Below, in pieces: positions 24,777 to 27,491 of a stretch of 43,349 nucleotides of DNA; position 1 is the first letter of the stretch, and each line of letters starts with the position of its first letter. Under the pieces are notes generated by a model that saw only the letters and a program-made list of their open reading frames with translations, ran no database searches and was not told the DNA's origin. The position numbers were made by a program, and so were the translations under genes. The DNA is from a virus (lineage: Duplodnaviria > Heunggongvirae > Uroviricota > Caudoviricetes), in the IMG/VR virus record IMGVR_UViG_2541047690_000002; one strand, written 5' to 3'.

Positions 24777-24784
24777 GATTAATG
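24777..24784. repeat. Target-site duplication, left copy (GATTAATG)
   Basis: Identical 8 bp on both flanks of the IS; 8 bp is the TSD size typical of IS66-family elements. Confidence 0.85.
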
Positions 24785-24837
24785 GTAACCGGCTCATTTA
24801 AACCGTCTGGTCTGTTTCCTCCGGCTCTACAAAAATA

Positions 24838-25515
24838 ATGTCCATCATTTTTAATGGACACTATCGTATGAAACACCGGACCTGGATCACTGAAGCTTTA
24901 CGTCTTCACTTTGAAGAACATTTACCCCGGGTTGTGGCCGGGCGTCGCCTGGGTGTACCAAAATCAACAGTTTGTAGTATGTTCGTGCGCTTTCGGAGAG
25001 CTGGCCTTTCGTGGCCTTTGCCCGCAGGCATGTCGGAGCAGGAACTTGATGCCTGCCTTTACGGACAATTTTCCACGGTACCAGTCGTACGTCCTGAAAG
25101 CACCGTTATATCCGAAGCCCCCGTGGTAAAAAAACGTCCCCGGCGGCCCAACTTCCCTTATGAGTTTAAAATCGCCTTAGTGGAGCAGTCACTGCAGCCC
25201 GGAGCCTGTGTGGCGCAGATCGCCCGGGAAAACGGAATCAACGATAACCTGCTCTTCAACTGGCGCCATCAATACCGGAAAGGTGGCCTGCTGCCTTCCG
25301 GAAAAAATATGCCGGCACTGCTTCCCGTGACGTTAACGCCGGAGCCGGATAATAAAATCCCGGCCCCCGCACAGGAACCAGAGCAGATAAATACACCGTC
25401 CGACAGTCTGTGTTGTGAGCTGGTTCTGCCGGCCGGAACTCTCAGGCTTAAAGGTAAACTGACGCCGGCGTTATTACAGACACTTATCCGCGAAATAAAA
25501 GGGAGCAGCCACTGA
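24838..25515 (+). CDS. tnpA: IS66-family accessory protein (orf1/TnpA)
   Basis: 225-aa ORF; C-terminal half recalled as IS66 orf1-like; a start at the internal ATG (24868) is possible. Confidence 0.7.
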   Translation: MSIIFNGHYRMKHRTWITEALRLHFEEHLPRVVAGRRLGVPKSTVCSMFVRFRRAGLSWPLPAGMSEQELDACLYGQFSTVPVVRPESTVISEAPVVKKRPRRPNFPYEFKIALVEQSLQPGACVAQIARENGINDNLLFNWRHQYRKGGLLPSGKNMPALLPVTLTPEPDNKIPAPAQEPEQINTPSDSLCCELVLPAGTLRLKGKLTPALLQTLIREIKGSSH

Positions 25516-25862
25516 TGATATCTCTCCCTGCAGGTTCGCGTATCTGGCTGGTTGCAGGTATCACCGATATGCGAAATGGCTTTAACGGCCTGGCATCAAA
25601 AGTTCAGAACGTCCTGAAGGATGACCCGTTCTCCGGACACCTGTTCATCTTCCGCGGACGTCGGGGTGACCAGATAAAAGTGTTGTGGGCTGACAGTGAC
25701 GGACTGTGCCTCTTCACCAAACGCCTGGAGCGGGGCCGCTTCGTCTGGCCAGTCACCCGTGACGGCAAGGTGCACCTTACTCCGGCTCAGTTATCCATGC
25801 TTCTTGAAGGTATCAACTGGAAGCACCCGAAACGAACGGAACGCGCTGGAATCCGCATATAA
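25515..25862 (+). CDS. tnpB: IS66-family Orf2 (TnpB)
   Basis: 115-aa ORF (MISLPAGSRIWLVAGITDMRNGFNGL...) typical IS66 orf2. Confidence 0.85.
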   Translation: MISLPAGSRIWLVAGITDMRNGFNGLASKVQNVLKDDPFSGHLFIFRGRRGDQIKVLWADSDGLCLFTKRLERGRFVWPVTRDGKVHLTPAQLSMLLEGINWKHPKRTERAGIRI

Positions 25863-25881
25863 CCCGTTGTAAAGTGAGGAT

Positions 25882-27453
25882 ATGGACACCTCACTTGCTC
25901 ATGAGAACGCCCGCCTGCGGGCACTGTTGCAGACGCAACAGGACACCATCCGCCAGATGGCTGAATACAACCGCCTGCTCTCACAGCGGGTGGCGGCTTA
26001 TGCTTCCGAAATCAACCGGCTGAAGGCGCTGGTTGCGAAACTGCAACGTATGCAGTTCGGTAAAAGCTCAGAAAAACTTCGTGCAAAAACCGAACGGCAG
26101 ATACAGGAAGCACAGGAGCGAATCAGCGCACTTCAGGAAGAAATGGCGGAAACGCTGGGTGAGCAATATGACCCGGTACTGCCATCCGCCCTGCGCCAGT
26201 CTTCAGCCCGTAAACCGTTACCGGCCTCACTTCCCCGTGAAACCCGGGTTATCCGGCCGGAAGAGGAATGCTGTCCTGCCTGTGGTGGTGAACTCAGTTC
26301 TCTGGGATGTGATGTGTCAGAGCAACTGGAGCTTATCAGCAGCGCCTTTAAGGTTATCGAAACACAACGTCCGAAACAGGCCTGTTGCCGGTGCGACCAT
26401 ATCGTGCAGGCACCAGTACCTTCAAAACCCATTGCACGCAGTTATGCCGGAGCGGGGCTTCTGGCCCATGTTGTCACCGGGAAATATGCAGACCATCTGC
26501 CGTTATACCGCCAGTCAGAAATATACCGTCGTCAGGGAGTGGAGCTGAGCCGTGCCACACTGGGGCGCTGGACAGGTGCTGTTGCTGAACTGCTGGAGCC
26601 GCTGTATGACGTCCTGCGCCAGTATGTGCTGATGCCCGGTAAAGTCCATGCTGATGATATCCCCGTCCCGGTCCAGGAGCCGGGCAGCGGTAAAACCCGG
26701 ACAGCCCGGCTGTGGGTCTACGTCCGTGATGACCGTAACGCCGGTTCACAGATGCCCCCGGCGGTCTGGTTCGCGTACAGTCCGGACCGGAAAGGTATCC
26801 ATCCACAAAATCACCTGGCCGGTTACAGCGGTGTGCTTCAGGCCGATGCTTACGGTGGTTACCGGGCGTTATACGAATCCGGCAGAATAACGGAAGCCGC
26901 GTGTATGGCTCATGCCCGGAGAAAAATCCACGATGTGCATGCAAGAGCGCCCACCTACATCACCACGGAAGCCCTGCAGCGTATCGGTGAACTGTATGCC
27001 ATCGAGGCAGAGGTCCGGGGCTGTTCAGCAGAACAGCGTCTGGCGGCAAGAAAAGCCAGAGCCGCGCCACTGATGCAGTCACTGTATGACTGGATACAGC
27101 AACAGATGAAAACACTGTCGCGTCACTCAGATACGGCAAAAGCGTTCGCATACCTGCTGAAACAGTGGGATGCACTGAACGTGTACTGCAGTAATGGCTG
27201 GGTGGAAATCGACAACAACATCGCAGAGAACGCCTTACGGGGAGTGGCCGTAGGCCGGAAAAACTGGATGTTCGCGGGTTCCGACAGCGGTGGTGAACAT
27301 GCGGCGGTGTTGTACTCGCTGATCGGCACATGCCGTCTGAACAATGTGGAGCCAGAAAAGTGGCTGCGTTACGTCATTGAACATATCCAGGACTGGCCGG
27401 CAAACCGGGTACGCGATCTGTTGCCCTGGAAAGTTGATCTGAGCTCTCAGTAA
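25882..27453 (+). CDS. tnpC: IS66-family transposase (Orf3/TnpC)
   Basis: 523-aa ORF with N-terminal leucine-zipper-like region and IS66 transposase-like core; Cys-rich CxxC...CxxC segment. Confidence 0.85.
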
Positions 27454-27483
27454 ATATCAATACGGTTCTGACGAGTCGCTTAC

Positions 27484-27491
27484 GATTAATG
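27484..27491. repeat. Target-site duplication, right copy (GATTAATG)
   Basis: See left copy; portal reading frame resumes here. Confidence 0.85.

Follow-up and report, generated by a model that had tools for sequence, protein, structure and literature searches.

The portal gene B of a lambda-like prophage of Escherichia coli HVH 18 has been split by an insertion sequence (IS) of the IS66 family. The prophage makes up the greater part of the IMG/VR virus record IMGVR_UViG_2541047690_000002, a stretch of 43,349 nucleotides that we call the window, in which it is integrated at the tRNA-Thr(CGT) gene thrW (1369–1444), adjoining proA (1–1254). A single transposition with the canonical 8-bp target duplication physically split B, leaving an N-terminal fragment of 201 amino acids and a C-terminal fragment without a promoter. 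We consider it very likely that ISCro1 transposed into codons 194–197 of B in the HVH 18 lineage, that head assembly was disabled, and that the persistence of the insertion has been neutral. The finding is real and had been precisely described in an earlier note on this DNA. It is also already known in kind: many prophages have been documented with an IS in a morphogenesis gene, a commonplace lesion, and the truncated open reading frame (ORF) was already in GenBank.

The boundaries of the insertion can be placed to the base (Table 1). On the plus strand of the window the octamer GATTAATG is found only at 24777–24784 and 27484–27491, with exactly 2699 bp between its two copies, and the perfect direct repeat reported in the earlier note was thus found again on re-examination. 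The left copy spans the third base of the codon for portal residue Q194, the codons for I195 and N196 and the first base of D197. At the left junction the sequence from 24770 to 24810 reads gtgtgcaGATTAATG up to the element and GTAACCGGCTCATTTAAACC from its first base onwards, and at the right junction the sequence from 27470 to 27500 reads GACGAGTCGCTTAC followed by GATTAATGacagcggc. The ends of the IS were set without reference to the portal site, from copies in other E. coli genomes that are 100% identical to it (n=6), all of which start with GTAACCGGCTCA and end with CGAGTCGCTTAC, the same bases as in the window. With the ends fixed in this way, the probability that a repeat would match by chance at 8 of 8 positions is 4^-8 (~1.5e-5). 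Perfect 8-bp duplications surround five of these six copies. In a wider set of 44 distinct sites at which the same IS has inserted, taken from complete genomes, from GTDB genomes and from IMG/VR contigs, 34 have them. The two termini form an imperfect inverted repeat, with GTAA at the start of both.

Table 1. Positions in the window of the portal gene fragments, the insertion sequence and its parts, and other prophage features.
Feature	Position	Strand	Remarks
Insertion sequence, ISCro1-type, IS66 family	24785..27483	+	2699 bp; same orientation as the phage late operon
Left target-site duplication, 8 bp	24777..24784	.	GATTAATG; single copy at the empty site of relatives
Right target-site duplication, 8 bp	27484..27491	.	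GATTAATG; read from the sequence
Left terminal inverted repeat	24785..24810	+	GTAACCGGCTCATTTAAACCGTCTGG; matches the reverse complement of the right end at 18/26 positions (16/22)
Right terminal inverted repeat	27458..27483	-	GTAAGCGACTCGTCAGAACCGTATTG (read on the - strand); pairs with the left end
5' portal fragment, ORF of 201 amino acids	24196..24801	+	gpB 1–196 plus GNRLI, stop inside the IS; Phage_portal_2 profile 2–160 of 354; deposited as EQN71656.1
3' portal fragment	27492..28504	+	gpB 197–533; Phage_portal_2 profile 184–354 of 354
tnpA, IS66 accessory protein, helix-turn-helix, 225 amino acids	24838..25515	+	Pfam HTH_Tnp_1 8.6e-15; NCBIfam IS66_access_TnpA 1.1e-88
tnpB, IS66 accessory protein, 115 amino acids	25515..25862	+	Pfam TnpB_IS66 4.7e-40; NCBIfam IS66_TnpB 5.2e-38
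tnpC, IS66-family DDE transposase, 523 amino acids	25882..27453	+	Pfam DDE_Tnp_IS66 2.5e-103; NCBIfam transpos_IS66 2.4e-143
Integrase	1459-2622		
29%-GC island, AAA/ABC-type ATPase of 595 amino acids and overlapping HNH protein of 401 amino acids	11848-14837	-	between P and the nin region
OmpC/NmpC-type porin, intact moron gene	17423-18520	-	between Q and the lysis cassette
bor/iss, intact moron gene	20312-20605	-	downstream of Rz
Gene J	39549-43046		

At the protein level the insertion changes ...V Q I N D S... to ...V Q I N G N R L I stop. The deposited product EQN71656.1, which bears the title "portal protein B [Escherichia coli HVH 18 (4-8589585)]", is a truncated chimera with five IS-encoded residues. 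On the other side of the element, the longest ORF initiated by ATG runs from 27545 to 28504 and includes residues 215–533. When the IS and one copy of the repeat are removed, a portal ORF of 533 amino acids is recovered (1602 nt with its stop codon), the length of lambda B, just as had been claimed. This repaired protein aligns from 1 to 533 with lambda gpB (PDB 8k38, 533 amino acids) with three substitutions; the alignment of the two fragments confirmed the junction to the base and showed that they join in frame. Against the portal profile PF05136 they likewise join as one full-length portal, and neither half has any further lesion. The repaired portal is 100% identical to that of phage phiSTEC1575-Stx2k. 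In ETEC-2264 and WI1 the portal gene is uninterrupted, and the flanks of the IS align to it with 8 bp common to both alignments, and the reconstructed empty site (800 bp) is 100% identical in E. coli WI1. This empty site is present in 3161 of the 5426 complete E. coli genomes available at RefSeq.

Elements of the IS66 family have three ORFs, of which tnpA and tnpB overlap, a DDE transposase (TnpC) with a zinc finger and a leucine zipper, imperfect inverted terminal repeats of ~20–26 bp that begin with GTAA, and an 8-bp target duplication. The element in the window has the gene order tnpA-tnpB-tnpC with all three genes co-oriented, and the ATG of tnpB overlaps the stop codon of tnpA as TGATG. 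Its TnpC contains the Pfam domains DDE_Tnp_IS66 (PF03050), zf-IS66, LZ_Tnp_IS66 and IS66_C (PF13005, PF13007, PF13817), that is, the DDE, zinc finger and leucine zipper parts, and the three NCBIfam equivalog models for IS66 proteins were all matched far above their cut-offs. Pfam, NCBIfam and the GTAA ends therefore agree with the earlier description of a 2699-bp IS66-family element with three ORFs and terminal inverted repeats, to which the 8-bp duplication can be added. Compared to the prototypes IS679 and IS66, it has the same organization, termini and duplication length, and is a different member of the family.

The full 2699 bp recur with 100% identity in many chromosomes and plasmids of E. 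coli, and the three ORFs are intact and identical to those of multi-copy elements. RefSeq names the transposase of the 100%-identical copies "IS66-like element ISCro1 family", and an ISCro1 of 2699 bp with an 8-bp target duplication has been published for an E. coli plasmid (PMC12115866). ISCro1 was first named in Citrobacter rodentium ICC168 and is widespread in E. coli; it has the same 2699 bp, the same duplication length and the same tnpA-tnpB-tnpC order, and we found no difference from it in a comparison made by size, duplication and naming. By the RefSeq naming and the published size and duplication length, the element thus appears to be of the ISCro1 type. In C. rodentium ISCro1 has expanded to 24 copies, and IS679 and ISCro1 are listed there as separate elements (PMC3072379). 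One paper gives the ISCro1 of strain EC958 as 2824 bp (PMC8764528). A TnpC pattern scan aimed at the C. rodentium ISCro1 did not have C. rodentium among its matches, the best Citrobacter match being 97% identical. Copies of the IS (>=80% coverage) were present in 1493 of the 5426 complete E. coli genomes, and a single genome can have as many as 34 matching places; from this copy number and identity we read an IS that is known, abundant and evidently active. Short stand-alone contigs that consist essentially of this IS were also found in GTDB genomes labelled as Clostridiales MAG (metagenome-assembled genome), Thauera, Streptococcus sanguinis, Acinetobacter idrijaensis and Bacillus sp., one of them being exactly 2699 bp long with 2 mismatches. 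We read these as contamination or mis-binning and not as genuine hosts.

The interrupted gene is found beyond a single isolate. An exact look-up of the chimeric ORF recovered it on at least 24 public contigs, all from one clone, several of them derived from SRA runs (SRR9913967, ERR11477295 and runs of the series SRR258246xx–258252xx). The source of the window, HVH 18 (GCA_000456245.1, scaffold KE698958.1), is 100% identical to it over 20.6 kb, and no other record had exactly its J protein. A second genome, GCA_964047685.1, contains the same IS with the same duplication. It differs from the window by three single nucleotide polymorphisms (SNPs), at 29550, 29672 and 29675, all within 126 bp of gene C, a cluster that suggests a gene-conversion patch from another lambdoid prophage. 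In addition, it has gained a 2581-bp element of the IS21 family with a 5-bp duplication (CCTGC, 20614–20618) just upstream of bor, indicating that decay is still under way, at least in this descendant. Overall, the carriers differ by 0–3 SNPs over 14–20 kb. The filled junction between portal and IS was in none of the 5426 complete E. coli genomes, and an exact junction search of the GTDB species representatives gave no match either, which has little weight because E. coli is a single genome there.

This distribution also bears on whether the insertion is real, since a repeated IS could have been misplaced into the portal gene when the draft was assembled. It is true that KE698958.1, from which the window derives, is a scaffolded draft, that the window stops at a run of N in lom, and that IS copies are classic sources of mis-joins. 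However, 24 contigs that were assembled independently have the left junction, a Logan contig extends from the lysis-cassette region (window 20179, upstream of the junction by ~4.6 kb) as far as 2.4 kb into the IS, and a 4.95-Mb contig of another genome has both junctions with the same 8-bp duplication. Besides, transposition leaves a perfect target duplication as its signature, and a mis-join does not. As independent assemblies hold the junction, an artefact is effectively refuted, and we give it a negligible probability.

The insertion is young, since the IS and its junctions are unchanged, the IS is 100% identical to other copies, and the filled site is absent from the 5426 complete genomes. 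It occurred once, in the ancestor of the clone, and has been inherited since, so it is specific to a lineage and not private to one isolate. The earlier note had spoken of a recent transposition; the youth of the event stands, given the identity of the IS to other copies and the portal halves free of further lesions, but the event is not unique to the isolate. As such, the insertion marks the HVH 18 lineage, a single clone of E. coli, in a clean and datable way.

In phage lambda, the gpB dodecamer starts the assembly of the procapsid and provides the channel and the docking site for packaging by terminase. Lambda defective in B makes tails and lyses normally, with no filled heads. We envisage that a copy of ISCro1 jumped into B by means of its DDE transposase TnpC, the staggered cut resulting in the 8-bp duplication. 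Without the portal, the prophage alone would be unable to form DNA-filled heads; judged from lambda genetics, the loss of autonomous head assembly is a sound deduction. Upon SOS induction, excision, replication, late-gene transcription and cell lysis would still take place, with the release of tails together with aberrant, empty head structures and no infective particles. With int, the repressor region, O, P, Q, S, R and Rz all intact, the cell is still expected to die on induction. A promoter and terminator scan of the IS region gave nothing above the expectation from shuffled sequence, with no terminator on the + strand inside the IS. Since the IS is co-oriented with the late operon and has no such site, late read-through is probable, and Q-modified transcription probably continues through the IS into C to J; that it also reads into tnpABC is speculation. 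The closest genetic equivalents are the lambda B amber mutants, with the same loss of full-length gpB, and the phenotype expected here is by analogy theirs. In contrast to an amber mutation, the lesion in the window is an insertion that puts 2.7 kb and three foreign genes in the late transcript, and it would revert only by rare precise excision or by recombination. Programs that predict prophages would call this element of more than 40 kb intact or questionable, even though heads of its own are very probably impossible.

The earlier note had argued that the prophage probably cannot assemble heads. For autonomous assembly this follows from lambda genetics, but complementation by co-resident lambdoid prophages is possible (PMC2669165). 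A broken prophage could remain transmissible if another lambda-type prophage in the cell provided gpB, or if B were repaired by recombination. In O157 Sakai, co-resident lambdoid prophages help others that are defective in portal, head or terminase functions, one of these having an IS in nu1, to be packaged and transferred (PMC2669165). These prophages (Sp4 with nu1::IS; Sp3, Sp6, Sp9 and Sp12 with portal defects) likewise have a packaging or head gene inactivated and keep other modules (PMC2669165); they have multiple defects, however, while the prophage in the window has a single, very young lesion and is otherwise complete. Many E. coli genomes have 2 to 5 copies of the portal sequence (range 1 to 5), and the three SNPs of GCA_964047685.1 look like a patch received from a homologous prophage. 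On the other hand, the median number of lambda-type portals is one per genome, and the insertion is unrepaired in every member of the clone that was sampled. We regard continued transmission by either route as possible but rather unlikely, and a prophage grounded by its portal lesion remains the reading that we follow.

The rest of the prophage was checked against the 49 proteins of PhiR68_2 (PV340576.1), the closest deposited phage, which we cite only as a deposited complete phage genome with a propagation host; a literature search for a paper describing it (plaque formation) found none. B was the only split gene. The other 48 proteins all have uninterrupted counterparts in the window (48/48), and 45 of them align over their full length. 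Those that do not are the integrase (74% identical), P, which is missing 4 residues at its C-terminal end, and ren, for which the variable region after P gave only a weak partial match; all of them appear diverged or replaced relative to PhiR68_2 and not broken. The genes 5' of the IS are Nu1, A (641 amino acids), W and the first 196 codons of B, and 3' of it come the rest of B and then C, D and E. The late region (15.9 kb) aligns free of gaps, at 99.85% identity, to a WI1 prophage whose annotation shows all these genes intact. This judgement of integrity covers the window up to its end (43349), short of the tail-fibre end and attR, and this end is a run of N corresponding to a scaffold gap inside lom of KE698958.1. 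A break of lom just past the window was considered as a further lesion and rejected, as it is this scaffold gap. An Rfam scan of the window at gathering thresholds found thrW only.

The same IS has entered related prophages many times. It was found independently in homologues of Nu1, C, E, FII, V (at two sites), H and J and in the lom region, in other genomes and IMG/VR contigs, making at least 10 other insertion sites in lambda-type packaging, head, tail and lom-region DNA, a second site in B included. When mapped onto the window (22000–43300), each of these insertions has an 8-bp overlap of its flanks. The second site in B belongs to E. coli STEC388 (NZ_CP041425.1, locus 6270–9574), where an ISCro1-like insertion lies at approximately window position 27679, with the flank ending in GGAGCAGATGAAG and the element starting as GTAACC. 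That prophage is a remnant with a partial tandem copy of the IS and all the DNA downstream lost. STEC388 was considered as a match to the filled junction of the window and rejected, as a separate insertion 190 bp downstream with the partial tandem copy and the downstream deletion. A target motif, suggested by GATTAATA, the duplication at another copy, and by GCAGATGAAG, which precedes the IS in STEC388, was also dropped, because the 34 perfect duplications gave no consensus. The repeated hits fall in late genes that are dispensable for the host and point to tolerated, essentially random insertion, which is also what the hit in the portal looks like. A more novel idea would be that the hits in lambda-type morphogenesis genes are non-random, late transcription into a co-oriented IS driving the transposase at induction. 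If true, the IS would spread preferentially among induced prophage copies and would systematically ground lambdoid prophages, the portal hit being one instance of an interaction between IS and prophages that shapes which of them stay mobile. We find this highly improbable.

The earlier note had also stated that the regulatory, lysis and defence cassettes appear intact, which agrees with the uninterrupted counterparts of the other PhiR68_2 proteins and with a cargo that is present and intact. From this it went on to propose a domesticated prophage retained for its accessory cargo. On this reading the host would keep a head-less prophage under selection for its cargo (defence cassettes, porin and Bor), and the lesion would be part of the taming. 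The ATPase and HNH pair, the RexA/RexB-like pair, the porin and Bor are indeed intact, and the insertion has persisted long enough to be present in isolates from several sequencing projects. But domestication would be expected to leave several lesions in lytic and morphogenesis genes beside an intact cargo, and B is the only gene interrupted, with regulatory, replication, lysis and the other head and tail genes in place, i.e., there is no differential decay. Nor is the defective state conserved across diverged host lineages: it is limited to a near-identical clone (<=3 SNPs in 14 kb) and absent from all 5426 complete genomes. Loss of the portal would leave excision, replication and lysis in operation, so that the lysogen would still die on induction with no obvious benefit for the carrier, and the same IS strikes many other late genes elsewhere with a random-looking pattern. 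With a single lesion, death on induction retained, near-clonal spread and repeated random hits of the IS, domestication is unsupported, and we judge it improbable. When a lesion is young, intact regulatory, lysis and defence genes next to one broken structural gene are no evidence of domestication.

Neutral drift or hitch-hiking in the clone is the most economical explanation for the persistence of the insertion and does not need selection for the cargo; the insertion would be the first step of an ordinary prophage decay. Several points weigh against the reading that we favour, of an ISCro1 insertion that disabled head assembly and persisted neutrally. The name ISCro1 has been taken from RefSeq and from the published size and duplication length. 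The failure to produce particles is deduced for this prophage purely from the genetics of lambda, and gpB could be provided in trans if the genome has another lambda-type portal. Finally, neutrality is a default assumption. Beyond bookkeeping the importance of the insertion is small, as the ordinary disabling of a prophage in one clinical E. coli lineage, although it makes a textbook case of the first step of prophage decay by means of a very common IS.

The cargo cassettes are more interesting features of the window than the insertion. Directly downstream of the cI-like repressor, in the position of rexA and rexB, there is a pair of genes with 33% GC that code for a protein of 341 amino acids and a hydrophobic protein of 149 amino acids. 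Neither had a match in Pfam, PHROG or PADLOC, and BLASTP of the pair against lambda RexA and RexB found no similarity. The relationship to RexA/RexB is apparent only at the level of the fold, the AlphaFold model of the larger protein, built from 40 homologues, having a predicted local distance difference test (pLDDT) of 78 and a predicted template modelling score (pTM) of 0.73. The two genes are found together in an unrelated Klebsiella prophage, each 47% identical. Their position fits the RexA/RdgC-like genes that have been described for several lambdoid phages immediately to the left of cI (PMC11077077; PMC12315714). The second cassette is the low-GC island with the ATPase and HNH genes, whose best PADLOC matches were PDC-M62A (4e-44) and PDC-M62B (1e-33), with weaker ones to Septu PtuA/PtuB. 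We consider this pair a candidate Septu-like defence system (PDC-M62). In ETEC-2264 the second gene of the pair is annotated as shorter.

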